Shown one piece after another: positions 12,421-55,474 of a stretch of 64,000 nucleotides of DNA. Each line of letters begins with the position of its first letter. Position 1 is the first letter of the stretch. Origin of the DNA: Candidatus Pacearchaeota archaeon. Its GTDB lineage: Archaea > Nanobdellota > Nanobdellia > Pacearchaeales > GW2011-AR1. The DNA lies in NCBI GenBank assembly GCA_016188825.1, contig JACPHA010000005.1, positions 45-64,044 of the forward strand, given 5' to 3'. The notes below the pieces were generated by a model, which was not told the origin of the DNA, ran no database searches, and saw only the letters and a program-made list of their open reading frames with translations. The position numbers were made by a program, and so were the translations under genes.

Positions 12421-12601
12421 TTTTTATTTTATTAATTTTTATTTTATTAATTCACCTATTTAAATATTTCTTTAGTGCAATCCATATTTTTCATTCAAAT
12501 ATTTGGTTTTGTAAAGTTAAAAGGCGATAAATTCACTTGTTTTTACGATTTTGTCTAGGATAATTATCTGCCATCTCACATTGGCTTAACATTATTATCG
12601 T

Positions 12602-12688
12602 GAATTCTGGTAATTGGTATAAAATTTGTCCAGAATTCCCGTGATAGATAATTCCCAAAACCCCATACTAATTAAGGGAATTATCTAT
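12602..12688. repeat. Paired-hairpin intergenic element, copy A
   Basis: Hairpin 1: GAATTCTGG (12602-12610) / CCAGAATTC (12630-12638), 19 nt loop. Hairpin 2: ATAGATAATTCCC (12644-12656) / GGGAATTATCTAT (12676-12688), 19 nt loop. A perfect palindrome GATAATTATC lies at 12559-12568 just upstream. Confidence 0.8.
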
Positions 12689-12875
12689 AAATAATTTTTC
12701 TTATGGTGCTTTGTTGCACGAGTGAAGAATAAATTACAATTATCTACGATATAATAATTAAAACGAATCATTAATAATTTCTTTTTATCTAAGACAAATC
12801 AACCCAGCCTCATTCAATGCAATAGAATCTCTTACGAGTAAAAAGAATTAAAAAGAGTTCTTTTTTTTATAAGTC

Positions 12876-15036: not shown

Positions 15037-15891
15037 ATGAAAATTTTAGCACTTGGAGATTTCCACGGCGAATTTCCAAAAAAGTTTGAAAGAATAATTA
15101 AAAAAGAAAAAATTGATTTGATTGTTTCTAATGGTGATTATTTTCCTTTTTATTATAGGGAGTTGTGGTTTGAGCATTGTTATAGGAAGGATGTTGAGCT
15201 TTGGGAAGTTATTGGAAAGAAAAAATATAGAAAATTAATTGAAAAAGATTTGAGAGACGGGGAAAACGCAATAAGAAAATTAAACAAACTAAAAATTCCG
15301 GTTATTACAGTTGTTGGAAATATTGACTATACAAGAACTCCAGATGTTTCTGATTTTAAAAAACCGCGGGGAAAAAGATATTGGGCTTGGGATTGGCAGG
15401 ACTTTTTTTCTCCTATAATAAGAAAATACAAAAACATTAGGAGGTTTGATTACTCGTATCTTAAATTTAGAAATTATGTTTTTATTGGCGCTATTGGCGG
15501 TAGTTTTTCCGGGAAAGTAAAAAGTAAAGCATATAAAAAACACAGAAAAATTTTAGAAAAATTGTTTAAAAAATTTGCACAAGAAAATAAAGAAAGAAAA
15601 GTGATTTTTGTTTCTCACAATGTTCCTTACAAAACAAAACTTGATTTGATTGGAATGAAAGCACACAAATTGGTAAGAGGAAAACATTTTGGCTCAAAAT
15701 TAGTCAGAAGAATAATTGATAAATATAAACCTATTTTGCATACTGGAGGGCATATTCATGAATCAGTAGGGATGCAAAAATTGGGAAGAACATTATGCAT
15801 TAATCCTGGAGCAGCCCATGAAGGCAAGGCAGCGATAATTATTCTGCCGGAAGAGAAGAAAGAGAAGATGAGAGTAAGGTTTATTAAATAA
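15037..15891 (+). CDS. Metallophosphoesterase (calcineurin-like)
   Basis: LALGDFHG, NGDYF, VVGNIDY, VSHNVPY and GGHIHE occur in the canonical order. Confidence 0.85.
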   Translation: MKILALGDFHGEFPKKFERIIKKEKIDLIVSNGDYFPFYYRELWFEHCYRKDVELWEVIGKKKYRKLIEKDLRDGENAIRKLNKLKIPVITVVGNIDYTRTPDVSDFKKPRGKRYWAWDWQDFFSPIIRKYKNIRRFDYSYLKFRNYVFIGAIGGSFSGKVKSKAYKKHRKILEKLFKKFAQENKERKVIFVSHNVPYKTKLDLIGMKAHKLVRGKHFGSKLVRRIIDKYKPILHTGGHIHESVGMQKLGRTLCINPGAAHEGKAAIIILPEEKKEKMRVRFIK

Positions 15892-16629: not shown

Positions 16630-19600
16630 ATGATTAATGACTTGAAGAGAAAAATAATAGAACTGAAAAAAAATAGAGTGTTGGCTGTTAGAAATAAAGA
16701 GAAAATCATTCAAATTGCTAAAAAATTATTTTTGGATTATCAAAAAGGCAAGATAACAGAAGAAGAATATAAGGAAGAACTGAAGAAAAGTTTCGGCGGG
16801 AAAGAGGTAAAAGAATGGATTGAATATTATGATGTGTACATTGAGCAGTGCACCGGACAGATTGAATTTTATGGGTATAAATTAATGCAGGAGAAGACAA
16901 GAGCATTGACAAAGAAATTTGTTTCTTTTGTTTTAATTCTTGTTTTGTTTTTGATTCTGTTTTTTGTCTATTTACAACTGCAAAAACAGGTTTTTTTTGC
17001 TCCTATTACCGAAACCTATGTTGATAATTTGAATTTGTTTTATAATGAAAGTGCCGAATATGTTTGGAAACCGGAAAATGAAGGAAGAATCAACGGCGTG
17101 AAATTATCTGGTTTAATAGAAGGCGACGGCGAGGTTAAAGTTTATTTTGAGGATAAATTAATTTTGGACAGCAAGAATTTAGAAATCACCGAGGGAAAAA
17201 TAATAAGTGGAAACACAGTCTATAATAATTTAGATAATACAAGCGAAAATAATAATTTTAGTTCAGATAATATTTACGGCGGCGATGTTAATTTTTCTGG
17301 CAGCAGCGAGAATTTTGTTAGTAATCAGGCACAAGTTGAGAATACAATAAAGAAATTTAGTGAAATATGCGAAGAAACTTGTGACTTGAGTGAATTTAAT
17401 TTTAGTTCTGGAAATTATAAACTAAGAATTGAGATAAACGGAAACGCAAAGGTAAGAATTGATAATTTAAGTTATGGAATTTTTACAAAGGTAAGAATTG
17501 ATAATTTAAGTTATGGAATTTTTAAAGAAGTAGCAAAGGCAGAGGTTAAAGAGACTGCCCAAAGAGAGGAAAAAACTGCAAAAGGGAAAAAGGTTAATTT
17601 TGATGGCTTGATTCAGGGAGATTTAATTTCTACGGAAATTCCAGAGAGTTGGAATGTAAAAGATAAGAGCAAATTAAAAGTTTATTGGAAAGAAGGAGGG
17701 GAAGAAATTGATTTTGATGCTGTTGACAATAATAATGACGGAATTATCGACGAGCTTTCTTGGGAGAGTTCTCAGGGCGGAACTCAGACGTTTGAAATAA
17801 TTGTCATAACAAAAGCAGAGCATTTGGATTCTAATAAAGAATTTATTTCTGATATTTACGATTCCGTGAAGGAACTAGACGGGATTTGGAGCGAGGAGAT
17901 TCCAGACAAACATTATATAAGAGTTAAATTTGAAAGAAAATTGACAAACACGAATGATATTACAATTTATCCTCGAAAAATTAGCGGAAATCCAAGAATT
18001 GAGATTTATGAAATTAATGGGACTTCAACGATAGCTTCGTTTGACACTTTGAAAGATAATGAATATAACAAGGTTTATTTGACTTCATTGCAGAACAGCC
18101 AAGATAGTTTTGACCTTTTGGTTTTAGACGGAGCAATTGAGATTGAGCATATTGTGGATCCGAGCGCATCGCCGGGAAATGGAGTTGATTTAAGAGCGCA
18201 AGCTTGTGCTAGACAAAATCAACAAGGAAGTCAAAATACATTTGATTTAGCTTGTTTTGGAACATATCCTAATTCAACATGTTCCAGTTCTGGGGATAGA
18301 TTAAGCTGTGATGATGGAATTGTCGAAACCGCAACAACTTTCACAGGCACCTACGGAGGGATTAATGCCTCTTTTTATAATAGTTCAATAACAAACTGCG
18401 TTCAAATTGTGCAGGTATTTTTGTGTTATAATTTTTGGGGCAGTGCTCCTAATCAACATTCCTGTGAGGTTGGAGTTGATTCAGACGGGGGAGCTTCTTG
18501 GAGTAGTTTCAGTGTATCATGTTTTGGTGGTGATAGTGGAATAAGTTGTACTAACTTTACAGCAGGTCAAAATTGGCAGTGCAGCAATTTCTTTGGAGCG
18601 AACGGAACAAGTGCATTGGCAAAGGCACAAGCATTCAAGCAGGGCGGGGGCGGAATAAGGTCATGGAACTTTGATGTTTTATTCTTTAATTTAACTTATA
18701 CAGCGGATACAACACCTCCGCAAGTCACAATAATAGATCCTCAGAATAATTTTTATAACACTTCCTTTATTTACTTTAATATTTCTACTAATGAAAACAG
18801 CACTGCAAATTATAGTTTAGACGGCGGAAGAACAAATATTTCAATGAGCGCAAATGCATCTTTAACTGGTTTTACGGCTTTTAATAATTCAATTGCAGAT
18901 GGAATTTATACAGTTAATTATTATGTTAGAGATATTTATGGAAACTCTAATAACACGGAAAATGTAACATTTACAGTTGACACCACTGCTCCAACAGCAA
19001 ATTATGTTTCTCCGACTGAAAATTCTGGAGTTGCAAGAAACAGAGATTATATTGAGGTTAATGTTACAGCATCTGATTCTGGCGTTGGATTAGATAGCAT
19101 TTTGATAAGATTGTATAACTCTTCTCAAAATCAAATAAATAGCTCAACAACTTCATCTCCAAATTATATTAATTTTTCCGGCTTATCTGATGGATTATAT
19201 TTCTACAATACAACAGCAAATGATACTTTAAACAACAAAGTTGACTTAACAACAAGGAATATTACTTTGGATAGAACATTTCCTTTAATTTCTTATGGAG
19301 TTGGCACTGAAAATGACAATGCTGTTGTAAATAGAGACTGGATTTATGTTAATGTCACATTCTTAGAGATTAATTTTGCAAATATAACTTTCTTGTTGGT
19401 TAATGATTTTGGAATTGTTAATTCAACTACCCACACTACAGAAATTTATGAAATAAATTGGACAAATTTGCCTGCAGGGAATTATACTTACAATGTTTCA
19501 ATTTATGACCTCGCGGGAAACTTTAATTCAACTGCAACAAGAAAAATTAATTTGTCTGCCAGCGCCGGAAATTCCGCGCCAGAAATAATTTTTGTCGGTT

Positions 19601-20934
19601 TGGTAAATGATAGCTTTACTCCTTTGGGAAGTGCAACGCCGTTGGAAAGCAATGCGAGAAATGTAAGTTTTGTTTTCACTGCTTATGATGGGAATGGCGC
19701 AGGAAATTTAAACGGCAGCACAGCACAAGCAAGATTTCAGAGGACAGGGCAGATAACAAGAGAGAATTTAACTTGCTCTGAAATTTCAGGGCAAAACACA
19801 ACAAGCACAAAGAATTATAGTTGCACAATCGGAATGTGGTACTTCGATCAATCAGGAAATTGGATTGTAAATGCGACGATAAAAGACAATTCAAATGCAA
19901 TGGCGGAGAACTCATCAGCACAGTTCTTTTATGCAACTCTCGGCACTTTTGCTTTTTCACCTAAATCATTCGGGTTTGGAATTTTATTGCCCGGAGAGAT
20001 TAATAAATTGGCTTTGGAAGCGATGCTGATTAACAATACTGGAAATGCAAATTCTTCAAGTTTGAACATAACTGCTATTAATTTGTTGGGAGAGCAGGAT
20101 AGCAATTATATGATTCCTGCAGAAAACTTTACGGTTCATATTTCTGCTTTCTGTGATGTTGGGACAAGGATGCAAAATGGTACGAATGTTTCTGTTATCG
20201 GATCTTTATTGCCTCCAGGGAACAATTCGTTAAATTATAGGAATGAAACTTCAGGGCAGGAAGAATTGTATTTTTGTATTGAAGAAGTTCCAAACAGCAT
20301 TATTTCACAGGATTATTCAACAAGAATTGGCGGCTCTTGGGAGATTTTTATTTTTGTTGCGCCTTTTGTTATAAGAAGGAAGAGGAAAAAACATGGAAAA
20401 GAAATTAATGAAAAAATTGAAGTTGACAAAGAAGAGCTTCTTGATTTGTTGGGAGATAAATTAGAAGAATTGTTAATTTTAGTTAAGGAAAGAAAGATTA
20501 AGCGGGAAGAAAAAGAAATTATTAAGAAGGAGAAAATGGAGAAGAAAGAAATTGAAGTTCCTTTGGGAGTATTTAGAGAGAAAGCTGGAGCGGCGGAAGT
20601 ATTATGTAAATATCTGAGAGAAAACACTGGCTTGAAATTTGTTGAAATCGCAGAATTATTGAACAGAGACAGAAGGACAATAGGAGCCAATTACAAGAAT
20701 GCAGTTAGGAGAATAAAGAACAAGATAAAGATTGACAAAACAGGAGAGGAAATTTATATACCAATAGAAATTTTGGCAAACAGGAAATTGAGTATTTTAG
20801 AATCTGTCGTTCATTACTTGAGAGAAAAAGGCTTGAGAAATTCTGAAATAGCGGGCATGCTTAATAGAGACCCGAGGAATGTTTGGACTTTGTACTCAAG
20901 GGCAGTAAAGAAATTAAGGAAGAGTAATATTTAA
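16630..20934 (+). CDS. Giant two-TM surface protein with cytoplasmic C-terminal tandem HTH (cassette 1, gene 1)
   Basis: 1,434 aa. In order: a Lys/Glu-rich N-terminal ~95 aa; TM1 FVSFVLILVLFLILFFVYL (~16915-16985); a ~1,150 aa Asn/Cys-rich middle part full of N-x-S/T sequons; TM2 WEIFIFVAPFVI (~20338-20373) followed by RRKRKKHGK (positive-inside); then two HTH repeats. The last ~290 ectodomain residues are homologous to the signal-peptide protein encoded at 20980, which supports an extracellular location. Confidence 0.85.
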   Translation: MINDLKRKIIELKKNRVLAVRNKEKIIQIAKKLFLDYQKGKITEEEYKEELKKSFGGKEVKEWIEYYDVYIEQCTGQIEFYGYKLMQEKTRALTKKFVSFVLILVLFLILFFVYLQLQKQVFFAPITETYVDNLNLFYNESAEYVWKPENEGRINGVKLSGLIEGDGEVKVYFEDKLILDSKNLEITEGKIISGNTVYNNLDNTSENNNFSSDNIYGGDVNFSGSSENFVSNQAQVENTIKKFSEICEETCDLSEFNFSSGNYKLRIEINGNAKVRIDNLSYGIFTKVRIDNLSYGIFKEVAKAEVKETAQREEKTAKGKKVNFDGLIQGDLISTEIPESWNVKDKSKLKVYWKEGGEEIDFDAVDNNNDGIIDELSWESSQGGTQTFEIIVITKAEHLDSNKEFISDIYDSVKELDGIWSEEIPDKHYIRVKFERKLTNTNDITIYPRKISGNPRIEIYEINGTSTIASFDTLKDNEYNKVYLTSLQNSQDSFDLLVLDGAIEIEHIVDPSASPGNGVDLRAQACARQNQQGSQNTFDLACFGTYPNSTCSSSGDRLSCDDGIVETATTFTGTYGGINASFYNSSITNCVQIVQVFLCYNFWGSAPNQHSCEVGVDSDGGASWSSFSVSCFGGDSGISCTNFTAGQNWQCSNFFGANGTSALAKAQAFKQGGGGIRSWNFDVLFFNLTYTADTTPPQVTIIDPQNNFYNTSFIYFNISTNENSTANYSLDGGRTNISMSANASLTGFTAFNNSIADGIYTVNYYVRDIYGNSNNTENVTFTVDTTAPTANYVSPTENSGVARNRDYIEVNVTASDSGVGLDSILIRLYNSSQNQINSSTTSSPNYINFSGLSDGLYFYNTTANDTLNNKVDLTTRNITLDRTFPLISYGVGTENDNAVVNRDWIYVNVTFLEINFANITFLLVNDFGIVNSTTHTTEIYEINWTNLPAGNYTYNVSIYDLAGNFNSTATRKINLSASAGNSAPEIIFVGLVNDSFTPLGSATPLESNARNVSFVFTAYDGNGAGNLNGSTAQARFQRTGQITRENLTCSEISGQNTTSTKNYSCTIGMWYFDQSGNWIVNATIKDNSNAMAENSSAQFFYATLGTFAFSPKSFGFGILLPGEINKLALEAMLINNTGNANSSSLNITAINLLGEQDSNYMIPAENFTVHISAFCDVGTRMQNGTNVSVIGSLLPPGNNSLNYRNETSGQEELYFCIEEVPNSIISQDYSTRIGGSWEIFIFVAPFVIRRKRKKHGKEINEKIEVDKEELLDLLGDKLEELLILVKERKIKREEKEIIKKEKMEKKEIEVPLGVFREKAGAAEVLCKYLRENTGLKFVEIAELLNRDRRTIGANYKNAVRRIKNKIKIDKTGEEIYIPIEILANRKLSILESVVHYLREKGLRNSEIAGMLNRDPRNVWTLYSRAVKKLRKSNI
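17447..17524 (+). repeat. Perfect 39 bp tandem duplication inside cassette-1 gene 1
   Basis: caaaggtaagaattgataatttaagttatggaattttta occurs at 17447-17485 and again at 17486-17524 (protein KVRIDNLSYGIFT / KVRIDNLSYGIFK). The paralog at 25435-25473 has one copy. Confidence 0.95.
20560..20931 (+). other. Tandem HTH domains (sigma-70 region 4 / LuxR-GerE-like) of the 1,434 aa protein
   Basis: AAEVLCKYLRENTGLKFVEIAELLNRDRRTIGANYKNAVRRIKNK and ILESVVHYLREKGLRNSEIAGMLNRDPRNVWTLYSRAVKKLRK. The pattern h-L-E-x(4)-L-x-E-x-G-x(3)-EIA-x-L-x-R-x(2)-R-T/N-V-W-x(2)-Y-x-R-A-x-KKL matches the sigma70_r4/GerE helix-turn-helix layout. Confidence 0.7.
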
Positions 20935-20979: not shown

Positions 20980-21918
20980 ATGGAAAAGACAAAAATTATT
21001 TATTTTTTTATTATGTTTGTTGTTATCGCTTTGTTTTTGATTAATTTTGTTTCTGCTAGTTTTGGTGATTGGCTTAGAGAATTGTTTGGAGGAGAGCCGC
21101 AACTTGCGCCATTTAATCTTACTGTAACTGTTGGGAATACTCCGCCCAATATAACTTTTGTTATTGCTCCCGGAGCTTCGCCAGTAGAAAACGGAACTTC
21201 TTTTGTCAATGTTATTTTCACAGCATTTGACCAAAATGGAGCAGGAGATTTAAATAGCAGTACAGCGCAAGCAAGATTTCAGAGGACAGGGCAGATAACA
21301 AGAGAGAATTTAACTTGTGCTGAAGTTTTAGGACAGGCAACAACGAACACGAAGAACTATAGTTGCACAATCGGAATGTTGTACTTCGATCAATCTGGAA
21401 ATTGGATTGTAAATGCGACGATAAAAGACAATTCTAATGCAATGGCGGAGAATTCCAGCGCAATATTTTCATATGGGACTTTTATTGGCACATTCTTTTC
21501 TCCTAAACAAATGTCGTGGGATTCATTAAGCGCCGGAGCCGCTAATGTACCCTCGGGCAATAATCCCATGCTTTTGAATAATACAGGCAATGTTAACATT
21601 AATTATACTAATGGCAACTTTAATATTACCGCTATTGATTTGGAGATAGAAAATCCTGGAAGCGGCGAATATATATATGCCGGAAACTTCAGCGTTGATA
21701 TAAGTGCTGCAGGATGTTTAGGAACACAAATGGCAAATGGAACTTCAAGAGCAATAGTAAATGCCATCTTACCACCGGGAAACAATTCATTAAATTATAG
21801 AAATGATAGTTCAGGACAGGAAGAATTATACTTCTGCATAACCGCCTTAAGCGGAACTTTATCACCTGGAACATATTCAGCTTTGAAAGGAGGCTCATGG
21901 AAACTTGATTATTTGTAA
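20980..21918 (+). CDS. Secreted Asn-rich protein, free-standing paralog of the membrane-proximal ectodomain of the upstream gene (cassette 1, gene 2)
   Basis: 312 aa. Signal peptide IIYFFIMFVVIALFLINFVSA followed by SFGDW. Blocks are identical or nearly identical to 19726-19910 of the upstream gene (e.g. 21268-21317 = 19726-19775, 50/50 nt). No TM or HTH at the C-terminus. Confidence 0.8.
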   Translation: MEKTKIIYFFIMFVVIALFLINFVSASFGDWLRELFGGEPQLAPFNLTVTVGNTPPNITFVIAPGASPVENGTSFVNVIFTAFDQNGAGDLNSSTAQARFQRTGQITRENLTCAEVLGQATTNTKNYSCTIGMLYFDQSGNWIVNATIKDNSNAMAENSSAIFSYGTFIGTFFSPKQMSWDSLSAGAANVPSGNNPMLLNNTGNVNINYTNGNFNITAIDLEIENPGSGEYIYAGNFSVDISAAGCLGTQMANGTSRAIVNAILPPGNNSLNYRNDSSGQEELYFCITALSGTLSPGTYSALKGGSWKLDYL

Positions 21919-24803: not shown

Positions 24804-27800
24804 ATGAGCAAAATAAAAAATAAAATTTTTGAATTGCAGGAGAAAAAGAGAGAGATTTTTGTTAAAATCGCCCAATTAAAAAAAGAGAAAGATAAATCAG
24901 ATTATAATATCCAGTTAAGAACTTATCATGCACAGAAAGAATGGGTTGAGAGCGAGATAAGGCGAGAAAAAAGAAAATCTGTTAGAAATATTTTAATTCC
25001 GATATTTTTCATTTCTTTATTTTTAGTTGTGATTTTTCTTTATGTATTTTTTAAACCAACGCTGACAGGGTTTGCAGTTTTTGAAGGAGTTAGTAAGATT
25101 TATACAAAACAATTGGATATTTGGGAGAATAATAGTGAGGAATATACAATTGAAATTAATGAGAGTGGAAGAATCAACAGCGTGAAATTATCTGGTTTAA
25201 TAGAAGGCGACGGCGAAGTCAAAGTTTATTTTGAGGATAAATTAATTCTTTATAGCAATAATCTGAAAGTTAGCGAGACCAAGTTAATAAATAAAACTCT
25301 AGATGATAACCAAACACAAGAAGTTGAAGTTGCAATAAAGAAATTTAGTGAAATATGCGAAGAAACTTGTGACTTGAGTGAATTTAATTTTAGTTCTGGA
25401 AATTATAAACTAAGAATTGAGATAAACGGAAACGCAAAGGTAAGAATTGATAATTTAAGTTATGGAATTTTTAGAGAAGAGAAAATTGAAAGAGGGAAAA
25501 GAGCAGAGTTTGTTGAGCTGGTTGAGGGAGATATAATTTCGACGGAAATTCCGGAAAGCTGGAATATAAAAAATAAAAATAAAATAAAAATTTATTGGGA
25601 AGAAGGAGGAAAAGAAATTGATTTTGACGTCGGTGATAATGATAATGATGGAGTTATTGATGAAGTTTCTTGGACAAGCCCGCAGGGCGGAACTCAGACG
25701 TTTGAAATAATTGTCATAACAAAAGCAGAGCATTTGGATTCTAATAAAGAATTTATTTCTGATATTTACGAGGATGTTCGCGAGCTGGATGGAAAGTGGA
25801 GCGAGGAAATTCCATCAGGGGATTTTGTAAGAGTTAAATTTGAAAGAAAATTGACAAACACGAATGATATTACAATTTATCCTCGAAAAATTAGTGGAAA
25901 TCCAAGAATTGAGATTTATGAAATTAACGGGACTTCAACGATAGCTTCGTTTGACACTTTGAAAGATAATGAGTATAACAAAGTATTTTTGACTTCATTA
26001 CAAGGTGAGCAGGATAGTTTTGACCTTTTGGTTTTAGACGGAGCAATTGAGATTGAGCATATTATTGACCCTACACAACTATTCTTTGAGAATTTTGAAG
26101 CTGGGAATTTAAATAATTGGAATAACGTAGCTTTATGGAATAATGCATCAGACCGAAAGGACACGGGGACATATAGCGCTAAATGCACAGGTGCTAATGA
26201 TTGTGATATGAGTCTTGCTACTGCCTTAGATACTTCAACTGCTTCAGAAGTTAATGTAACTTTCAGATTTAATGATGATGATTTGGATGGAGTAGGCGAC
26301 GCACCATATTATTGGAATGACAGTTCTGGAAATTGGGATTTGATAGGAGAACTTGATTCAGCCACAGAAGATACATGGCTTACTTTTTCAAATTCATCAA
26401 CTGATTCGCAATATTTCCATAAAGGATTTAACATAAGGTTTACTACCACTCTTGATGGTGGTGGTGGCGTTGAAAATCTTTGGCTTGATAATATAAATGT
26501 TTCTTATACTCCCGATACAACTCCTCCAATAGTAACAATAAATCAGCCAACTCCTCCCTATGTGAATATCTCAACATCAAGCGTTGACTTCAATGTAACA
26601 ATAGACGAGAATGGCGATACAGCTAGATACACATTAGACAGTGGAGCAAACAATGTAACAATGCAAAAAAACGGCCAGAGAGACTTTAATCATACAAATT
26701 CCAGCATAGCAGATGGCTTGTATACTATAAGATTTTATGTAAATGATACAGCAGGCAATTTAAATGATACAGCAAATAGAACATTTACAGTTGACACCAC
26801 TTCTCCAACAGCAAATTATGTTTCTCCGACTGAAAATTCTGGAGCTGCAAGAAACAGAGATTATATTGAGGTTAATGTTACAGCATCTGATTCTGGCGTT
26901 GGATTAGATAGCATTTTGATAAGATTGTATAACTCTTCTCAAAATCAAATAAATAGCTCAACAACAACTTCATCTCCAAATTATATTAATTTTTCAGGCT
27001 TATCTGACGGATTATATTTCTACAATGCAACAGCAAATGATACTTTAAACAACAAAGTTGACTTAACAACAAGGAATATTACTTTGGATAGAACATTTCC
27101 TTTAATTTCTTATGGAGTTGGCACAGCAGACGACGGAGCAAATTTAACACAATCAAATATTTATGTTAATGTCTCGGTTACAGAAACAAACTTTGCAAAT
27201 ATAACTTTCTTGTTGAGGAATGATACCGCAACAGTAAATTCTACAACATTTACAACCGCAACTTATGAAATTAACTGGACAGGTCTTCCATTGACAAATT
27301 ATACATACAATGTTTCAATTTATGATACGGCCGGGAATTTTAATTCAACAGCTACGAGGAAGATTAATTTATCAGAGGCAGCGCTAAATTCAGCTCCAAC
27401 AATAACGTTTGTAAGCATTATGCCTGCGACAGACCCAAGTGAAAACACCATTAAGAATATTTTATTTAATTTTACAGCTACAGATGCAGATGGTGGAGGA
27501 AATATTAATATTAGTACAGCGCAAGCAAGATTCCAACTTACTGGACAGACAACAAGGTCCAATTTAACTTGCGCAAATATTACCGGTGTTTTTAGCAGTA
27601 ATAATATGAACTTCACTTGCACTGTTGGAATGTGGTATTTTGACTATCCAGGAGCATGGACAGTTAATGTTACAATTTCTGATAATAGCGCAGCAAATGG
27701 CGAGAATTCAACAACAACATTTACTTATAATACTCTGAATGCGATGGTAATGTCTCCCAATGCTTTAACATGGGCAAGTTTATCAGCCGGGGCTTTGAAC

Positions 27801-28742
27801 ACGCTTTCTAACAATGACCCAATCTTGATAAACAACACAGGAAACAAGAATGTAACAAACATTACTATAAATGCGATAAATTTGATTGGTGAGCAGAATG
27901 GTGCTTATAATATTCCTGCGGCGAATTTTACAGTCAGCATAACCGATTCTTGTGATTCCGGAACAATTATGGGAAATAACTCTCAAATTCAAGTTGGCAG
28001 TGCAATTTTGCCGAGAGGGAATAACTCATTAAATTATGGGAACGAAACTTCAGGACAGGAGCAGTTTTACTTTTGTTTGGAAGAAGTTCCGCAAAGCATT
28101 CCTTCACAACCATATTCAACATCTGCAGGAGGCGCATGGACCATAACAATTCTTGCGACAGTGTTTGCTGTTGCCGGGAGCGCTAGAAGAAAGAGGAAGA
28201 AGAAAATTAAGGATGATAAGCTAGTAGATGTTTTGGGCTCGATAATAGACGAGATAAAAGAAAAACATTCTTTGAGTAAGGCAGAAATACTAAACTTGGT
28301 TGTGAAAGAATTAAAAGAGAAGTATAAGATTAGCAATAGTGAGATAGCTGAGATTCTTGAACTGAAGCAGAAGGACAATATTCCAATAACAATATTTTCC
28401 AGCAAACTTGGAGGTTTAGAAGCACTGGTTAAATATTTGAAGGAGAATGTTGAGATGAGATTCAGTGAGATTGCTAAAGTGCTGGGAAGAGATGACAGGA
28501 CGGTATGGACTGCATACAAAAAAGCATCAGAAAAAGAAAAAGAGAGGTTGAAAGTTAAGGAAACAGAAGTTTTGCTGCCGATTTCAATATTTAAAGACAG
28601 GAGAACGACTGTGCTTGAAGCTGCTATAATGCATCTTAAAGAAAAGGGCATGAAATATAGTGAAATAGGAGAATTGCTTGGAAGAGACCAGAGAAATGTC
28701 TGGGCTATTTATTCGAGAGCAGTTAAGAAGTTGAGGAAATAA
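24804..28742 (+). CDS. Giant two-TM surface protein with cytoplasmic C-terminal tandem HTH (cassette 2, gene 1)
   Basis: 1,312 aa paralog of 16630..20934. TM1 ILIPIFFISLFLVVIFLYVFF (~24990-25055). TM2 WTITILATVFAVAG (~28138-28180) followed by SARRKRKKK. Two HTH repeats follow. Several blocks are 100% identical to the cassette-1 gene. Confidence 0.85.
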   Translation: MSKIKNKIFELQEKKREIFVKIAQLKKEKDKSDYNIQLRTYHAQKEWVESEIRREKRKSVRNILIPIFFISLFLVVIFLYVFFKPTLTGFAVFEGVSKIYTKQLDIWENNSEEYTIEINESGRINSVKLSGLIEGDGEVKVYFEDKLILYSNNLKVSETKLINKTLDDNQTQEVEVAIKKFSEICEETCDLSEFNFSSGNYKLRIEINGNAKVRIDNLSYGIFREEKIERGKRAEFVELVEGDIISTEIPESWNIKNKNKIKIYWEEGGKEIDFDVGDNDNDGVIDEVSWTSPQGGTQTFEIIVITKAEHLDSNKEFISDIYEDVRELDGKWSEEIPSGDFVRVKFERKLTNTNDITIYPRKISGNPRIEIYEINGTSTIASFDTLKDNEYNKVFLTSLQGEQDSFDLLVLDGAIEIEHIIDPTQLFFENFEAGNLNNWNNVALWNNASDRKDTGTYSAKCTGANDCDMSLATALDTSTASEVNVTFRFNDDDLDGVGDAPYYWNDSSGNWDLIGELDSATEDTWLTFSNSSTDSQYFHKGFNIRFTTTLDGGGGVENLWLDNINVSYTPDTTPPIVTINQPTPPYVNISTSSVDFNVTIDENGDTARYTLDSGANNVTMQKNGQRDFNHTNSSIADGLYTIRFYVNDTAGNLNDTANRTFTVDTTSPTANYVSPTENSGAARNRDYIEVNVTASDSGVGLDSILIRLYNSSQNQINSSTTTSSPNYINFSGLSDGLYFYNATANDTLNNKVDLTTRNITLDRTFPLISYGVGTADDGANLTQSNIYVNVSVTETNFANITFLLRNDTATVNSTTFTTATYEINWTGLPLTNYTYNVSIYDTAGNFNSTATRKINLSEAALNSAPTITFVSIMPATDPSENTIKNILFNFTATDADGGGNINISTAQARFQLTGQTTRSNLTCANITGVFSSNNMNFTCTVGMWYFDYPGAWTVNVTISDNSAANGENSTTTFTYNTLNAMVMSPNALTWASLSAGALNTLSNNDPILINNTGNKNVTNITINAINLIGEQNGAYNIPAANFTVSITDSCDSGTIMGNNSQIQVGSAILPRGNNSLNYGNETSGQEQFYFCLEEVPQSIPSQPYSTSAGGAWTITILATVFAVAGSARRKRKKKIKDDKLVDVLGSIIDEIKEKHSLSKAEILNLVVKELKEKYKISNSEIAEILELKQKDNIPITIFSSKLGGLEALVKYLKENVEMRFSEIAKVLGRDDRTVWTAYKKASEKEKERLKVKETEVLLPISIFKDRRTTVLEAAIMHLKEKGMKYSEIGELLGRDQRNVWAIYSRAVKKLRK
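28380..28739 (+). other. Tandem HTH domains of the 1,312 aa protein
   Basis: GLEALVKYLKENVEMRFSEIAKVLGRDDRTVWTAYKKASEK and VLEAAIMHLKEKGMKYSEIGELLGRDQRNVWAIYSRAVKKLRK. Confidence 0.7.
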
Positions 28743-29047: not shown

Positions 29048-29983
29048 ATGGACAATAAAAAGAGTGTCTACGGAAAGATTTTGTTTTTGATTTTGATATT
29101 TGCTATTGTTTTTGCCCTTTCTTCGTCTGAATTTTTTAATTGGCCTCTTTCTTTATATAATCTTATCACTGGACGAGCAACAACTAGCACAACAAGTTTG
29201 AATATTAGCGTTACAAATACAGCACCGATAATAACCTTTGTCAGCGCGATTGCTGCGACAGATCCGACCGAAAGCAGCACAGTTAATATCAGAGTTAATT
29301 TTACAGCAAATGATGCCAATGGAGGAAGCGATCTGGATAGGTTTGGTGGGCAAGCAAGATTTCAGTTTACTGGACAGACAACAAGATCCAATTTATCATG
29401 CTCAAATGTAACAGGGGTTTTTAGCAGTAATAATATGAACTTCACTTGCACTGTTGGAATGTGGTATTTTGATGTGCCTGCCAGCTGGACTGCTAATATA
29501 ACTATAAATGATTCGGCAAATGCCAGAGGAGAGAATAGCACAACGACATTTACTTTCAATACATTAAATGCAATGGTTATGTCTCCTACGGCATTAACAT
29601 GGGCTTCTTTAAGTATAACTTCAACAAATGTAGGTTCTAATAATGATCCAATCACAATAAATAACACAGGCAATAAGAACGTGACCAATGTAACTGTTAC
29701 AGGAATTGATCTTCGTGGAGAATCAAATGGTGCATTTGCTATTTTTGCAAGAAATATTTCAGTAAATGCGGTTGATGTTTCGGATGGGTTCCTTATGTTA
29801 AATAATTCTGCTGTTCAAGTTGAAAACGCAACATTATTAAGAGGAAATAACTCATTAAATTATGGGAATGAAACTTCAGGACAGGAGCAGATTTACTTTT
29901 ACGTAGAGGCTCTTAATCCGGATTTAACATCGCAGGCATATTCAACATTGGCCGGAGGTGCATGGACTGTGACATCGCAATAA
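29048..29983 (+). CDS. Secreted Asn-rich protein, free-standing paralog of the upstream ectodomain (cassette 2, gene 2)
   Basis: 311 aa. Signal peptide ILFLILIFAIVFALSSS followed by EFFNW. 29417-29472 is identical (56/56 nt) to 27588-27643 of the upstream gene. No TM or HTH. Confidence 0.8.
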   Translation: MDNKKSVYGKILFLILIFAIVFALSSSEFFNWPLSLYNLITGRATTSTTSLNISVTNTAPIITFVSAIAATDPTESSTVNIRVNFTANDANGGSDLDRFGGQARFQFTGQTTRSNLSCSNVTGVFSSNNMNFTCTVGMWYFDVPASWTANITINDSANARGENSTTTFTFNTLNAMVMSPTALTWASLSITSTNVGSNNDPITINNTGNKNVTNVTVTGIDLRGESNGAFAIFARNISVNAVDVSDGFLMLNNSAVQVENATLLRGNNSLNYGNETSGQEQIYFYVEALNPDLTSQAYSTLAGGAWTVTSQ

Positions 29984-30608: not shown

Positions 30609-30674
30609 CTGTAATGTTTATTCAATTATATTATAGCCCCCGACATTAATAAAGTCATAAAAATTTGGTTAATT

Positions 30675-30760
30675 ATAGATAATTCCCTTGATTAGTATAG
30701 GGCTTGGGGAATTATCTATCACGAGAATTCTGGACAATTTTTAGACTAATTACCAGAATT
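30675..30760. repeat. Paired-hairpin intergenic element, copy B (inverted relative to copy A)
   Basis: ATAGATAATTCCC (30675-30687) / GGGAATTATCTAT (30707-30719) with a 19 nt loop. GAATTCTGG (30725-30733) / CCAGAATT (30753-30760) with a 19 nt loop. The reverse-complemented loops match copy A at 15/19 and 16/19 positions. Confidence 0.8.
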
Positions 30761-30877
30761 ATCGATATTTATAAGTTTTTCAAAACTCTATATATCTTAC
30801 TTTTTTAATAAGCGCAATAAACAACAATAAATATTGAGAGAGGATAATTTTAAATATTTCTGTTGGTGCTTTCATAG

Positions 30878-32575
30878 ATGAAAAAAGAGGGTTTCATAAT
30901 TTTATTATTGGCAATAGGAGTTTTTTTTATTTTATTATTTTTATTTTATTATAATCTTGACAACTTTAAAAAAGGAAAATTTACAGGGAAAGCAACAAGC
31001 GAGAGTGTTGGACTTAATATAACTGTTGTAGGCTCAATTCCCACACTAACGATAGAAAAACCAAGAAATGAAACATATTTTAATAATCAATCATTAAGAT
31101 TAAAAATAACGAGCAATGGAAATAATTTTTGGTATAATTTAGATAATAATGCAAACACAACATTTAATGGCGATACATATTTTAATACTTCAGAAGGCGC
31201 ACACACGATTTATGTCTTTGCAAATAATTCTGCCGGAATAACAAAGAAAAATGTCAGTTTTTTTGTTAATTTTATGATATATAACATTTCTTTTAGTAAT
31301 TTTATAGGAGCATATGCGGGCAATTCAACCAATTTCAGAGAATTATCATATGAAGAAATGCAAAATCTAAGCAATGTTATACTTGAAAATACTTTGTTCG
31401 GAGGAATGAGATTTATTGATATAATTAATATGACTGCTGATTTTAATATGCATGATAATTTTACTGATATTGACAGTTTTATTAATGTTTCTTTTAATAG
31501 AATTGAATTAAATTCAAGCGGGTTGCCTAATTTTAACAAGAGCGCAGTTTTGACAATTCGTAATTTGTCATTGGCAAATCCGAGAATAGCCAGAGATGGT
31601 GTTGTTTGCCCTTCAACTATTTGCAAGATTATTAGTTATTCAAGTGGAACTCTAACTTTTAATGTTACTGGATTCAGTATTTATAGCGCAGAGGAAACTC
31701 CAGGAGTATCGCTTTCTCCTTCTGGCGGCGGAGGAGGCGGCGGAGGAACAATAGGAGTAGTAAAGAGCATTGGTAAAGAACTTTCAATTGATAAAGAAGA
31801 AATAAAGGTTTCTTTGAAGCAAGGAGAAACAAAGAGAGAGCAGTTTATAATCGAAAACACAGGAGAAGATGAGTTAAAGATATGGATTAATACCAGTAGT
31901 CTTAATGAATTTTTAGTAGTTAAACTAACGCAATTTACCCTTAGGCCAAATGAAAAAATAGTTGTTTTTGTTGACTTCTTTGCCCCTGAGACAACAAATC
32001 CTGATTTGTATTTAGGAAAGATTTTTGTTTCTTCTGGAGAAATTAAGAAAGAAATTCTTGTTTCTCTTGAGGTTGAATCAAAGAAACCATTGTTTGATGT
32101 TGAAGTTGAAATACTAAAAAAGGATTTAAGTTTTGAGCCAGGGGAAGAAATCATTGCAAATATAAAAATTTTTAATTTAGGAGAAATAGGAAGGGTTGAT
32201 GTTGGTGTTAGGTACGTTATAAAAGACGGAGAAGGAAATGTGATAATAGAAGAACTAAAAACCACTGCTGTTGAAACACAAATAAATTTTGTAAAAACCA
32301 TTACGATTCCAGAGGATGCAAAACCAGGGAAGTACGTGTTTTATACTAAAGTAGAATATAACGGAGGCGCAAGCGCAACAACACTTTTTACAATTAAGAA
32401 AAAATCTTTAGATTTTGTAATTTATTATATTGCGGGAGCCATTATATTAATTATTTTGACAGTTGTAATTTTTTACTTAATTCACAGATTAATACATAAG
32501 GAAGTAGAGTTTGCTATGACAGAGAAAAAAGATCATGAAAGAGATCAGAATTTTAAAAGAGAAGGGAATCTTTAA
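30878..32575 (+). CDS. Surface protein with poly-Gly hinge and C-terminal TM anchor (tandem paralog 1)
   Basis: 565 aa. In order: signal peptide, Asn-rich N-domain, SGGGGGGGGT hinge (~31724-31750), beta-sandwich repeats (SLKQGETKREQFIIENTGEDELKI...), TM and a basic tail. Confidence 0.75.
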   Translation: MKKEGFIILLLAIGVFFILLFLFYYNLDNFKKGKFTGKATSESVGLNITVVGSIPTLTIEKPRNETYFNNQSLRLKITSNGNNFWYNLDNNANTTFNGDTYFNTSEGAHTIYVFANNSAGITKKNVSFFVNFMIYNISFSNFIGAYAGNSTNFRELSYEEMQNLSNVILENTLFGGMRFIDIINMTADFNMHDNFTDIDSFINVSFNRIELNSSGLPNFNKSAVLTIRNLSLANPRIARDGVVCPSTICKIISYSSGTLTFNVTGFSIYSAEETPGVSLSPSGGGGGGGGTIGVVKSIGKELSIDKEEIKVSLKQGETKREQFIIENTGEDELKIWINTSSLNEFLVVKLTQFTLRPNEKIVVFVDFFAPETTNPDLYLGKIFVSSGEIKKEILVSLEVESKKPLFDVEVEILKKDLSFEPGEEIIANIKIFNLGEIGRVDVGVRYVIKDGEGNVIIEELKTTAVETQINFVKTITIPEDAKPGKYVFYTKVEYNGGASATTLFTIKKKSLDFVIYYIAGAIILIILTVVIFYLIHRLIHKEVEFAMTEKKDHERDQNFKREGNL

Positions 32576-32599
32576 ATATTTGCCTTGGTGTTTTTTATT

Positions 32600-34237
32600 A
32601 TGAAAAGAGGAGCAATTATTTTTTTGTCAATTATTCTGTTTTTTATTTTGATTTTATTAGAAAGAATTACGATTGCCGCTCCGAACGACGTTGCTTTGCA
32701 AGTTAGTGTTATTGAATCAGTGCCTGGATTGATAATAGAAAAGCCAACCAGCGGAACTTATTTTAGCAATGTTTCTTTGAGATTAAAAATAACGAGCAAC
32801 GGAAATAATTTTTGGTATAATTTAGATAACGGCGCAAACATAACATTTTCAGGAGATACTTATTTTAACACGTCAGAAGGCGCACACACGATTTATGTTT
32901 TTGCAAATAATTCTGCCGGAATAACAAAAAAGAACGTGACTTTTAATGTTAATTTATCAAAATATAGGGTTATCTATGACGAATATAGGAGTTCTAATAA
33001 AGGAACATCAACAAATTTTGACGAGTTTTCCTTTGAGGAAATACAAAGTTTAAGTGGAATTATTCTTGAAAATACGCAATATGGAAAAATTAGTTTTAAT
33101 TCAGAAATAAATGTAACAAACGACGGAGTTAATGATGGAATAACTGACTTGGATTTTAATACAAATGTTTCTTTCAATAGAATTGAAATAAATTCAACAG
33201 GATTGCCGAACTTTGATGTAAATGCGACCTTTAGTTTGTATGGTTTGACTTTTAGCAATCCAAGAATTTTGAAAGATGGAATAGTGTGTGGAGTAGAGTG
33301 TAATATTAATAGTTATTCTGGAGGGAATTTGACTTTTAATGTAACAGGATTTAGTGTTTATAGCGTAGAGGAAACTCCGGCAGGGCAGCCGCCGGCAGGA
33401 AGCAACGAAGGTGGCGGAGGTGGCGGTGGGCAAACTGTCAATTTTAGTATAGACAAAGAAACCATAAGTGTTTCTTTGAAACAAGGGGAAACGAAACGAG
33501 AAGGGTTTATTATTGAAAATTTTGGAGGAAGTGAAATAAGGATAAATATAAATTCTAGTTTAGGAGAATTATTAAGAATAAGAGAAAGTGAAATTAGTTT
33601 AAAGGCCGGAGAAAAGAAAGAGGTTTTTATCGATGTGATTGCTTTGGAAACAACGAATCCTGATTTGTATTTAGGAAAGATTGTTATTTTTTCTGGGACG
33701 AGTTCGAAAGAAATTCTTTTTAGTATAGAAGTAGAGTCAAAAAAACCACTCTTTGACGTCAGTGCAAGGATTTTGGATGAATATTTGAAAGTAAAGCCCG
33801 GAGAGAAATTATTAGTTGAGATAAGTTTATTTAATTTAGCAGGAATTGGAAAAGTTGATGTTCTTTTGGATTATGAGATAAGAGATTCAGAGGGAAATGT
33901 CATTACCAAGGAACAGGAAACAGTCGGAGTTGAAACGCAGACAAAATTTGTCAAGACATTTATTATTCCTGTTGATGAGCAATTAGGGGAATATATTTTT
34001 TACACTGCGGCAAAATATGACGGCCAAACAGGGAGTAGCAGTGCTAGTTTTGAAGTTATTTCTGATAAATACGGATTTAGTTACAGATGGTTAGTTATCT
34101 TGTTTGTTATAATCGTTATTTTATTAGTTATTTTGGCTAGAAAAATTAGACAAGCAAGAAATAGGGGAATTGAGAAGAAAAGAGAGGAGCTAATAAAGGG
34201 CGCCGAGCGGTGGGGAGAAAGTTATAAAGTTAATTAA
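32600..34237 (+). CDS. Surface protein with poly-Gly hinge and C-terminal TM anchor (tandem paralog 2)
   Basis: The ORF track starts at TTG 32585; ATG 32600 (MKRGAIIFLS...) is more plausible. Same architecture as 30878..32575, with long identical DNA stretches (e.g. around 31187-31250 vs 32870-32930). Confidence 0.75.
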   Translation: MKRGAIIFLSIILFFILILLERITIAAPNDVALQVSVIESVPGLIIEKPTSGTYFSNVSLRLKITSNGNNFWYNLDNGANITFSGDTYFNTSEGAHTIYVFANNSAGITKKNVTFNVNLSKYRVIYDEYRSSNKGTSTNFDEFSFEEIQSLSGIILENTQYGKISFNSEINVTNDGVNDGITDLDFNTNVSFNRIEINSTGLPNFDVNATFSLYGLTFSNPRILKDGIVCGVECNINSYSGGNLTFNVTGFSVYSVEETPAGQPPAGSNEGGGGGGGQTVNFSIDKETISVSLKQGETKREGFIIENFGGSEIRININSSLGELLRIRESEISLKAGEKKEVFIDVIALETTNPDLYLGKIVIFSGTSSKEILFSIEVESKKPLFDVSARILDEYLKVKPGEKLLVEISLFNLAGIGKVDVLLDYEIRDSEGNVITKEQETVGVETQTKFVKTFIIPVDEQLGEYIFYTAAKYDGQTGSSSASFEVISDKYGFSYRWLVILFVIIVILLVILARKIRQARNRGIEKKREELIKGAERWGESYKVN

Positions 34238-34325: not shown

Positions 34326-35753
34326 ATGAAAAAAGAGATTACAGCATTTTTTATTTTTTTTAGTTTGTTATTATTATTCATAGGTATTGTTAGTGCAATT
34401 GATGAGAATAGTTTGTTGGGAAAAATTATTACCGGGAAAATTGTAAGTGGAAAGGCGACACAGCAACCAGTGAATGTTTCAGTTGTTGTTAGTGGAGGAG
34501 GCAGTGCACCAGTATTGGGCACAATAGAAAATTCAATACTTGTTTGTGAAAACAATGCATTAAGTTATCCAATTAATGCAACTGACATTGACGGAGATAA
34601 TTTGACTTTTAGTATTTCTCCTTCGGTAACTTTTTTTGTTGATCCTGCGGCAAGATATAATGCAACTGTTATGACTTCAAAGATTTTTTCGGGTAATCTA
34701 AAGAAGAGCAATGTAGGGAATCATTCCAGGACTATTTCTGTAACAGATGGAAGTTTTTCTGATAGCAAGCAGACAAATATAACAGTCATTGCTGTGAATA
34801 ATCAACCAACAATGGAAACAATCGGAAATCAAAGCGTTCAAGCAGGAAGCAATTTTTACAAGCAAGTAATGATTAATGATACTGAGGATGGAAATTCAAG
34901 CTCTGGAAATTTGACTTTTAATATAACTTTTATTTCCGGAAATGCAATTTTTAATATAAGCAATCTTGGGGTTATGAATTTTACTACAAATTCTTCGCAC
35001 ATAGGAAGTTATGAGATAAGGGTTTGTGCAAGAGATTTGGGATTGTCAAACCAACACCCGAATATAAGTCTTTGCGGCACAGGAGCGGGTTCGAATAAAA
35101 GTGTTTGCGATAGTTTTAATTTGAGTATTACAGCCGAGCCGGTGAGCGGGCAGGTTTTAAGTGTTGGCGGCGGGGGAGCAACTGGCGGAGCTGTCCAGTG
35201 TGAACCAAAGTGGGGATGTGAGGATTGGGGAACTTGTCAAAACACAAAAGAAGCTCTAAATACCGGGGAATTAAGTGGGGAGGATTACAGAATTGCAAGC
35301 GAGGAGTGTAATGAGAACAATTGGGATAATATTATCTGCGGTTATCAGAGAAGGAATTGTATTGATGTGAAAAATTGTAACACTGGAAAAAATAAGCCAA
35401 ATGAAGCGCAGGGATGTTATTATACTATAAATCCCAGCTGTTTTGATTCTATAAAAAATTGCCACGATGGTAGGTGCGAATTGTTAGTTGATTGCGGCGG
35501 TCCTTGTGGGGTTTGCCCGACATGTTCTGACTTAATACAAAATCAAGGCGAAGAAGGAATTGATTGTGGCGGGCCATGTGCAAATGAGTGTTTGGCTTTT
35601 GCTCCGCCAGGTTTTGACAAATTTGAAAAATTTTTTAATTATTTAATTGCTTTTATTTTTGCTGTTATAGCAATTATTTTAATCGTTGTGTTGGTAATTA
35701 AACTTTATAATGTTTTAATTTTGAAAAAAGGCGAAAGTAACAGACACAGATAA
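34326..35753 (+). CDS. Surface protein: Ig/cadherin-like repeats + Gly hinge + Cys-rich module + TM anchor
   Basis: 475 aa. Signal peptide, then LVCENNALSYPINATDIDGDNLTFSISP-type repeats, a GGGGATGG hinge, a Cys-rich block CEPKWGCEDWGTC...CSDLIQNQGEEGIDCGGPCANEC, and a C-terminal TM. Paralog of 55709..57754. Confidence 0.75.
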   Translation: MKKEITAFFIFFSLLLLFIGIVSAIDENSLLGKIITGKIVSGKATQQPVNVSVVVSGGGSAPVLGTIENSILVCENNALSYPINATDIDGDNLTFSISPSVTFFVDPAARYNATVMTSKIFSGNLKKSNVGNHSRTISVTDGSFSDSKQTNITVIAVNNQPTMETIGNQSVQAGSNFYKQVMINDTEDGNSSSGNLTFNITFISGNAIFNISNLGVMNFTTNSSHIGSYEIRVCARDLGLSNQHPNISLCGTGAGSNKSVCDSFNLSITAEPVSGQVLSVGGGGATGGAVQCEPKWGCEDWGTCQNTKEALNTGELSGEDYRIASEECNENNWDNIICGYQRRNCIDVKNCNTGKNKPNEAQGCYYTINPSCFDSIKNCHDGRCELLVDCGGPCGVCPTCSDLIQNQGEEGIDCGGPCANECLAFAPPGFDKFEKFFNYLIAFIFAVIAIILIVVLVIKLYNVLILKKGESNRHR

Positions 35754-55041: not shown

Positions 55042-55474
55042 ATTTGAAAAAAAATTTAGAGGAATATATTTTTATATTTTGTTTTTAATTGCTGTTATTA
55101 TAGTATTTTTTTCTGTTTTGCTCTGGGTTTCAGGACCAATTGAAACAAAAGAATTTGATGTTAGGTTTAGTGTTAAGAATGAAGTGGGGGGATTTGATTT
55201 GAACGGCACAGCTTTAACTTATGGCATAATTCCTTTGGGGGGAGCAGGCGTTAGAACAGTTATAATTGGGAATTATCATGAATTTCCTGTTGAAGTTAAG
55301 ATTTTAGCAAACAGAGAAATTTTTGATTTCATTGACGCCCCAGAGAAAATTTTTCTTGGTGCTGGAGAAGAAAAGAATGTAACTATAAGAATAGAGATTC
55401 CAGAAGATGCAGAAGAGAAAGAATATAACGGGAAAATTAGGTTTGATACTTATTCTTTAAAGAATATTAAATGA
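55019..55474 (+). CDS. N-terminally anchored small surface protein
   Basis: The ORF track starts at TTG 55010; ATG 55019 is more plausible. Basic N-terminus, TM IYFYILFLIAVIIVFFSVLLWV, and a beta-rich domain ending IPEDAEEKEYNGKIRF. Confidence 0.6.
   Translation: MKKRRKNKFEKKFRGIYFYILFLIAVIIVFFSVLLWVSGPIETKEFDVRFSVKNEVGGFDLNGTALTYGIIPLGGAGVRTVIIGNYHEFPVEVKILANREIFDFIDAPEKIFLGAGEEKNVTIRIEIPEDAEEKEYNGKIRFDTYSLKNIK

Follow-up and report, generated by a model that had tools for sequence, protein, structure and literature searches.

The window considered in this study is a stretch of 64,000 nucleotides (nt) from Candidatus Pacearchaeota archaeon (contig JACPHA010000005.1, positions 45 to 64,044, of assembly GCA_016188825.1), and it carries three giant surface-protein genes, here named G1, G2 and G3, which lie in the same orientation on one contig. 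We found that G1 is a mosaic in which blocks identical or nearly identical to G2 alternate with patches resembling G3. This patchwork is probably the footprint of interlocus (ectopic) homologous recombination, or gene conversion, among the three genes, possibly with template switching. A preliminary description of the window had proposed a three-way conversion, and recombination among all three giants is indeed the best explanation. G1 (16630-20934) encodes 1434 amino acids (aa), its paralogue G2 (24804-28742), the partner in most tracts, 1312 aa, and the beta-helix/LamG giant G3 (35857-49245) 4462 aa. All three are on the plus strand, as are the tracts and small partner genes described below; they were delimited by using the list of open reading frames (ORFs) and Pfam matches, together with hydropathy in the case of G1. 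For the largest genes, nearly all homologues are from metagenome bins of Pacearchaeota, Nanoarchaeota and Woesearchaeota, and the stretch is therefore considered to be chromosomal DNA of a DPANN archaeon.

Mosaic structure of G1

Overall, G1 and G2 share 52% aa identity, and their codon alignment (3804 nt) is 67% identical. Along G1, similarity to G2 is first concentrated in an older tract at 17083-17206 (84.7% over 124 nt, partner 25167-25290), inside which lies a 37-nt exact repeat (17096-17132). Two perfect tracts follow, both of which are maximal exact matches and both of which had been described before. By direct comparison, 17345-17485 equals 25333-25473 at 141 of 141 positions, with a synonymous difference (pS) of 0, and 17773-17861 equals 25683-25771 at 89 of 89 positions, G3 agreeing at 65 of the 89. 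At the 3' edge of the 141-nt tract, G1 alone has a perfect 39-nt tandem duplication (17486-17524, a copy of 17447-17485 that also equals 25435-25473), with the peptide KVRIDNLSYGIF present twice.

The second perfect tract lies in a module of ~200 aa that is common to the three giants and is called D2 here (17566-18174 in G1, 25476-26075 in G2 and 37663-38286 in G3). It is directly followed by a first G3-like patch (17862-17917), which matches 37974-38029 of G3 at 54 of 56 positions and G2 at 32 of 56; the patch holds a 50-nt exact match (17867-17916 = 37979-38028, offset +20112) and encodes loop/linker residues 99-117 of a structural model of D2. That 17859-17925 resembles G3 had been reported previously, and the resemblance is real, although its placement at 37969-38035 was off by 2 nt (17 of 67 positions agree in that register). 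Next come a G1/G2 tract (17918-18062, 143/145 to 25828-25972; G3, 99/145), a second G3-like patch (18063-18102, 35/40 to 38175-38214 of G3; G2, 27/40) and a further G1/G2 tract (18103-18161, 56/59 to 26013-26071) that stops where the domain architectures of G1 and G2 part. The preliminary description had treated 17918-18160 as one block with only a few mismatches to 25828-26070. The block exists, but it matches at 225 of 243 positions, and 13 of the 18 mismatches fall within the second G3-like patch. Beyond this point, the Cys-rich D3 segment of G1 (18162-18698) is homologous to G3 (38274-38843) and not to G2, which carries an unrelated module there; its identity to G3 is 84% at the start and falls to ~70%. 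Within 440 nt, the order along G1 is G2/G3/G2/G3/G2/G3. Finally, in an immunoglobulin (Ig)-like module, 18966-19310 differs from 26780-27128 of G2 by five substitutions and a 3-nt indel, the extra codon sitting in G2; the earlier account of this pair (18966-19307 and 26781-27125) was correct apart from its extent, which is really ~18966-19310.

At the domain level, G1 is a chimera with a G2-like N-terminus, a G3-like D3 segment, and a G2-like Ig module and C-terminal part. Both G2 and G3 share tracts with G1, and what G2 and G3 have in common is family-level conservation only; G1 is the hub of the inter-giant exchanges. Tract divergence is 0%, about 1.5% or about 15% between G1 and G2 and 4-16% between G1 and G3, and such differences argue for at least several events. 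The alternation of donors had been taken as a hallmark of ongoing conversion, which goes too far: one or a few events with template switching or patchy heteroduplex repair suffice, and G2 tracts laid over an older G3-like backbone would equally give the alternating pattern of G1. Two observations bear on whether exchange is ongoing, namely the differing age of the tracts and one hybrid 31-mer in one independent assembly (see below), and they do not show it.

The mosaic is highly significant. The longest identical run in the G1/G2 alignment spans 147 columns, as compared with a maximum of 38 in 5000 permutations, and the longest series of consecutive identical third-codon positions is 73, as compared with a maximum of 25 in 5000 permutations. 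In the three-way alignment, 148 triplet-informative sites were found, of which 91 place G1 with G2 and 57 place it with G3. These G2-like and G3-like sites form 23 runs, whereas 71 ± 5.7 were expected (z = -8.4), and none of 100,000 permutations gave as few. In addition, pS is 0-0.15 within the blocks and 0.5-1.0 in their flanks; at 19492-19551, a flank in which the non-synonymous difference (pN) is 0.05, pS still reaches 0.72. Because such near-invariant protein flanks have high pS, amino-acid conservation is not the source of the nucleotide identity. As a yardstick, we used 2545 pairs of D2-coding sequences from different genomes with 65-80% nt identity. The longest exact match in these pairs is typically 14-22 nt and rarely exceeds 33 nt, and the matches of 89 nt (G1/G2) and 50 nt (G1/G3) are outliers against them. 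A 29-nt match common to all three giants (17791-17819) was considered as a conversion anchor and rejected, since unrelated genomes reach 29-33 nt at the same motif. Thus, both chance and selection at the protein level are excluded as causes of the mosaic.

Independent Logan assemblies of the same organism (runs SRR12113383 to SRR12113433) contain pieces that are 100% identical to the window. Their contigs, which are fragmented and were assembled with k=31, were found via flanking housekeeping or small genes. Contigs from several runs stop exactly 30 nt (k-1) into exact repeats. One contig (L086) runs 30 nt into the 37-nt repeat of G1 and G2 and ends at 17125; two others (L088 and L089) end at 25209, on the G2 side of the same repeat; L088 starts at 21405, 30 nt inside a 38-nt repeat shared by G1 and o312, the small gene downstream of it; and L090 ends at 38008, 30 nt into the 50-nt G1/G3 repeat. 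In total, four predicted contig ends, at three distinct exact repeats, were matched. Because the contigs break at predicted sites, these three repeats, each with two continuations, are present in the reads of several runs. It should be noted that one more contig (L091) stops at 37952, an end that no repeat explains. A hybrid 31-mer forms the end of another contig, L092 (run SRR12113430); it corresponds to window positions 37902-37932 and consists of a G3-specific left base, the 29-nt block common to G1, G2 and G3, and a base of the G1/G2 type where G3 has A (37932). This junction is absent from the window; it could represent a recombinant molecule or a polymerase chain reaction (PCR) chimera, an error being less likely.

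Giant proteins and their small partner genes

On the basis of hydropathy, the product of G1 is predicted to comprise, in this order, an N-terminal cytoplasmic segment, a transmembrane (TM) helix (aa 97-113), an ectodomain rich in N-x-S/T sequons, a weak hydrophobic segment, the motif RRKRKK and a C-terminal tail. It contains 54 such sequons and has Pfam matches to Big_13, Big_3_2 and Sigma70_r4_2. G2 would have the same topology, both giants having one strong TM helix and an ectodomain of ~1100 aa with Ig-like modules (Big_13 and Big_3_2). All three giants are very large, probably glycosylated cell-surface proteins. G3 has only the D2-D3 region in common with G1 (G3 aa 603-1000) and lacks the C-terminal helix-turn-helix (HTH) tail. 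The tails of G1 (20250-20934) and G2 (28150-28742) match sigma-70 region 4 and HTH_23, and each sequence, judged by eye, hints at two HTH copies; Sigma70_r4_2 recurs in dozens of giants of Pacearchaeota and Nanoarchaeota. Such features suggest that giants of the G1/G2 type may be membrane-tethered transcription regulators linking a huge ectodomain to gene control.

D2, present in three copies in the window, corresponds to aa 313-515 of G1 and was found in 117 of the 120 best homologues at ~50-58% identity. It is the hallmark of this giant-protein family and its most conserved module, and in G1, G2 and G3 it has no Pfam match. An AlphaFold model built from 14 sequences (pLDDT 90) contains two beta-sandwiches, and both G3-like patches map to surface loops of this model. 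A fold search with the model gave no match in the PDB at E below 1e-3, and likeness to APC10/DOC, discoidin and CBM-type beta-sandwiches was local only. As for G3, many repeats of a beta-helix module occur within 38898-47053 at 69-92% nt identity (for example, 92% between 42931-43124 and 45190-45383). Given these many internal repeats, intragenic recombination or repeat expansion within G3 is likely.

Immediately downstream of G1 and of G2 lies a secreted protein of ~310 aa that is a paralogue of the respective C-terminal ectodomain, o312 in cassette 1 (20980-21918) and o311 in cassette 2 (29048-29983); next comes an Ig-like, membrane-anchored protein of ~210-226 aa (o226 and o207). This cassette of a giant, a ~300-aa protein and a ~200-aa protein, together with the next trio of genes (o565, o550 and o475), is syntenic in a related genome (L005) at 35-50% aa identity. 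Within cassette 1, 19662-19913 of G1 and 21204-21455 of o312 are 86.5% identical, with exact runs of 50 and 38 nt. Within cassette 2, 27386-28141 of G2 and 29215-29967 of o311 are 70% identical and include a 56-nt exact run (27588-27643 = 29417-29472). The last ectodomain of each giant resembles its own small gene (58% for G1 and o312, 64% for G2 and o311, and 59% in L005) more than the two ectodomains resemble each other (54%) or the two small proteins do (42-44% aa). At the nt level, 77 sites support grouping by cassette, 38 grouping by gene type and 12 the third grouping; cassette-type sites are clustered in 19742-19904, and gene-type signal is retained in the C-terminal part.

The same relationship was observed in other genomes. 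Blocks of 80-748 nt with 90-97.5% nt identity connect the C-terminal ectodomain of the giant and the downstream ~300-aa gene in L005, L037, L078 and L050, and within the set compared, the closest relative of the C-terminal domain of the giant was its own downstream gene in seven fetched loci as well as in both window cassettes. Altogether, the pairing was seen in loci L005, L037, L078, L050, L049, L051, L052, L057, L066 and L079, and the regions involved in the window are 19540-20350 with 20980-21918 and 27380-28150 with 29048-29983. As judged from these comparisons, the pairing is a case of recurrent concerted evolution. Because concerted evolution has been catalogued for paralogues that belong to one complex (PMC6053082), we suggest that the small secreted protein may interact with the homologous domain of the giant. 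Several D2-bearing giants within 10 kb were found in only 1 of the 82 loci from other genomes (L071, with two copies); thus, the pairing of giant and small gene can be generalised, whereas conversion between giants cannot.

Other paralogues encoding secreted or membrane-anchored proteins lie nearby, including the pair o565 (30878-32575) and o550 (32585-34237), with 55% aa and 67% nt identity, and the pair o475 (34326-35753) and o681 (55709-57754), with 47-56% aa identity; no high-identity tracts were seen in either pair. The syntenic counterparts of o550 and o475 in L005 are L5_553 and L5_470, respectively. The window as a whole (G+C content 33.5% over 64 kb) has an extended series of genes whose products are secreted or membrane-anchored and rich in N-x-S/T sequons, as well as housekeeping genes for ribosomal protein L15e, MetRS, an AspRS-like ORF, GatB/E and a type IA topoisomerase. 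Judging solely by the adjacency of the run accessions, SRR12113421 being the neighbouring run, the habitat would be groundwater at Modesto, California. A Xer-type tyrosine recombinase (integrase) gene is located at 69-950, and a UvrD-type helicase fused to a PD-(D/E)XK nuclease (60399-63344, minus strand, 981 aa, AddA/AddB-like) is a candidate end-processing enzyme for recombination. Finally, an intergenic element of ~100 nt occurs twice in inverted orientation (12596-12694 on the plus strand and 30669-30767 on the minus strand, 88.9% identity). It folds into two hairpins (minimum free energy -29.2 kcal/mol, z = -4.2), has no Rfam match and may represent either a miniature repeat element or a gene for a small RNA. 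Contig L086 of the Logan set begins at 12598, at the edge of this element.

Competing explanations and possible mechanism

The patchwork could also reflect a programmed system in which recombination varies host-attachment proteins at high frequency, as the archaeal counterpart of pilE/pilS, vlsE, tprK or mgpB/MgPar, with G1 as the acceptor, G2 and G3 as donor cassettes and differing mosaics coexisting in the population. Since DPANN archaea live as episymbionts, a variable surface would be adaptive for them. Every inter-giant exchange involves G1, the tracts are short and of several ages, the two patches resembling G3 are located on loops at the surface of the D2 model, and the hybrid 31-mer of L092 does not occur in the window, all of which is consistent with such a system. 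However, there are no silent, truncated or promoterless cassettes. G1, G2 and G3 are three intact, full-length ORFs of differing architecture, and the likeness to antigenic or adhesin variation systems drawn in the preliminary description breaks down at this point. Moreover, the tracts occupy the most conserved modules rather than hypervariable regions, the flanks are identical in all comparable runs, and the lone hybrid k-mer may be a PCR chimera. Programmed variation is therefore an unlikely explanation. Equally doubtful is the wider proposal that the cassettes constitute a recombination-driven system for varying host attachment, in which segments move at appreciable frequency among the three giants and between giant and partner, and subpopulations display different mosaics; if it were true, the hybrid 31-mer would be the first glimpse of a minority mosaic.

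It is very improbable that the metagenome assembly created the mosaic or the perfect identity by following chimeric paths or collapsing repeats. The window does come from a 67.6-kb metagenome contig, its exact repeats of 141 and 120 nt exceed usual k-mer sizes and had to be resolved by the assembler, and its complete giant proteins were found nowhere else. However, at the 17861/17862 junction, identity between G2 and G3 is limited to 12 bases, too short a stretch for a k-mer hop of the assembler. The G3-like patches are separate DNA, since 2-8 nt in them depart from the G3 sequence. The 345-nt block in the Ig-like module retains five single-nucleotide differences and an indel, which speaks against automatic collapse. 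The k=31 assemblies of several runs, in addition to breaking at the predicted repeats, match the flanks at 100%, and similar high-identity blocks are present in unrelated assemblies of other genomes.

It is extremely unlikely that the blocks are remnants of a recent duplication, G1 and G2 in this view being young duplicates that acquired their diverged parts from other strains or species. Most G1/G2 blocks do have a similarly low divergence (0-1.5%), but one is 15% diverged, and the scenario requires that ~80% of the gene, along with the partner genes and the entire intergenic DNA, was replaced. The partner genes are only 42% identical in aa between the cassettes (o226 and o207; 42-44% for o312 and o311), G1 and G2 differ in domain architecture, and the G1/G3 patches are left unexplained, G3 being a different gene. 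The probability of constraint at the nt level (codon bias combined with protein conservation, or an embedded RNA or regulatory element) or of a diversity-generating retroelement is close to nil. In its favour, no other module of the family is as conserved as D2, which 117 of 120 homologues carry, and the 29-nt three-way match is within the range of unrelated genomes. However, D2 pairs across genomes never attain an exact match of 89 nt at comparable divergence, and synonymous sites are saturated even where a highly conserved stretch of protein lies outside the blocks. Since no Rfam family was found anywhere in the window, an embedded RNA or regulatory element was rejected as the cause of the identity. 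A diversity-generating retroelement was rejected as well, since no reverse transcriptase was found and the mismatches are of all types, in both directions and not adenine-specific. Pfam scans of ORFs of at least 150 aa detected neither a reverse transcriptase nor a transposase in or around the cassettes; the scan for reverse transcriptase left out the AspRS gene, a phosphoesterase-type ORF (15037-15891), a 154-aa ORF (55010-55474) and antisense ORFs.

Interlocus gene conversion and long-lasting concerted evolution of paralogues have been documented in prokaryotes including archaea (PMC6053082, PMC4632066). Under non-reciprocal gene conversion among the giants, a break or stalled fork in one copy would be repaired from a paralogue located 8-20 kb away: strand invasion of the RadA type would start at runs of identity in conserved modules, and 50-350 nt would then be copied by synthesis-dependent strand annealing. 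If the template were switched from one donor to the other, or if heteroduplex were repaired in patches, the alternation of G2 and G3 sequence in G1 within 440 nt could result; multiple events could explain it alternatively, and events of several ages would be superimposed in any case. Recombination on a larger scale may have created the domain chimera of G1, and recombination within each cassette would keep the last ectodomain of the giant, in its first half, similar to the adjacent small secreted gene. As to its selective value, the process could homogenise shared modules and now and then generate new adhesin chimeras. The net effect would be largely homogenising, because the converted tracts occupy the most conserved modules of the family (D2 and the Ig-like module). 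No support was found for GC-biased conversion: the tracts have 25-33% GC, as compared with 34-37% in the flanks.

Several points weigh against this interpretation or limit it. One assembly underlies both the linkage of the short patches on individual molecules and the 100% identity of the 141- and 120-nt blocks, and De Bruijn assemblers may collapse near-identical repeats and so overstate the perfection of blocks. For the clustering of cassette-type sites, significance is no more than moderate, 455 of 20,000 permutations giving as few runs. Outgroup D2 sequences (L035, L037, L024 and others) are 51-73% identical and too distant to polarise donor and recipient. RadA and other recombination genes lie outside the window. 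A close strain, which would allow a before/after comparison of the mosaic, was not found in the collections searched: scanning genome contigs with G1 returned three distant loci only, an exact 29-mer scan of metagenome contigs gave zero matches, a profile scan yielded 80 loci of which the best was ~72% identical in nt and none represented a close strain, and exact-protein look-ups with G1 and o312 gave no match. In the literature, nothing specific was found on gene conversion in DPANN surface proteins or on this giant family.

Comparison with known systems

Silent-cassette systems, such as pilE/pilS of Neisseria, vlsE of Borrelia, tprK of Treponema, msp2 of Anaplasma and mgpB/MgPar of Mycoplasma genitalium, resemble the present locus in that short segments are transferred, presumably non-reciprocally, from more than one donor and a surface gene becomes a mosaic. 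However, they combine an expression site with silent donors, whereas G1, G2 and G3 are complete genes, each with a start codon, an N-terminal TM helix and its own upstream region. Exchange in the giants has taken place in D2 and the Ig-like module, only two small G3-like patches being on loops. Thus, the locus is not a member of the silent-cassette class of antigenic variation.

A closer parallel is provided by families of intact genes. In the Neisseria opa family, intact paralogous surface genes exchange segments by homologous recombination. For babA, babB and babC of Helicobacter pylori, bab chimeras and gene conversion are described in two reports (PMC4552749, PMC5483490). As in these families, intact and dispersed paralogues for surface proteins swap short segments in the window and form chimeras, with no silent cassettes involved. 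The window genes differ from bab and opa in the archaeal host, in which RadA would act in place of RecA, and in their products, which are giant membrane-anchored proteins of an unrelated family; these contain Ig-like, LamG and beta-helix modules, and two of them have a cytoplasmic HTH tail.

Concerted evolution offers another parallel. A survey by Wang and Chen in 2018 found it to be recurrent among prokaryotic paralogues in many lineages, often for proteins of one complex (PMC6053082), and mtrA duplicates in methanogens are an archaeal case (PMC4632066). In these cases, paralogues within one genome are closer to each other than to their orthologues, which is also true of the pairs formed by the C-terminal domain of a giant and its small gene. 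They mostly concern core metabolic or informational genes over their whole length, whereas partial mosaic tracts, surface proteins and three partners are involved here.

As to template switching during gene conversion or break-induced replication in yeast, one repair event can copy two ectopic donors and leave a tri-parental mosaic. With regard to G1, this is a mechanistic analogy only, and we know of no such events in DPANN archaea. DPANN archaea rely on physical attachment to their hosts, and large surface proteins are obvious candidates for host recognition. In this context, genes for giant surface proteins have been found to recombine with each other, one giant being a three-parent chimera, and giants of the G1/G2 type co-evolve with an adjacent small secreted paralogue across many groundwater genomes of Pacearchaeota and Nanoarchaeota. 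These observations define a conserved cassette and an as yet unannotated hallmark domain, D2, and they suggest a testable route by which tiny genomes devoid of mobile diversification machinery may reshuffle their attachment repertoire. The process itself is textbook interlocus gene conversion; what is new in comparison with the systems above is the protein family and the lineage, not the mechanism.

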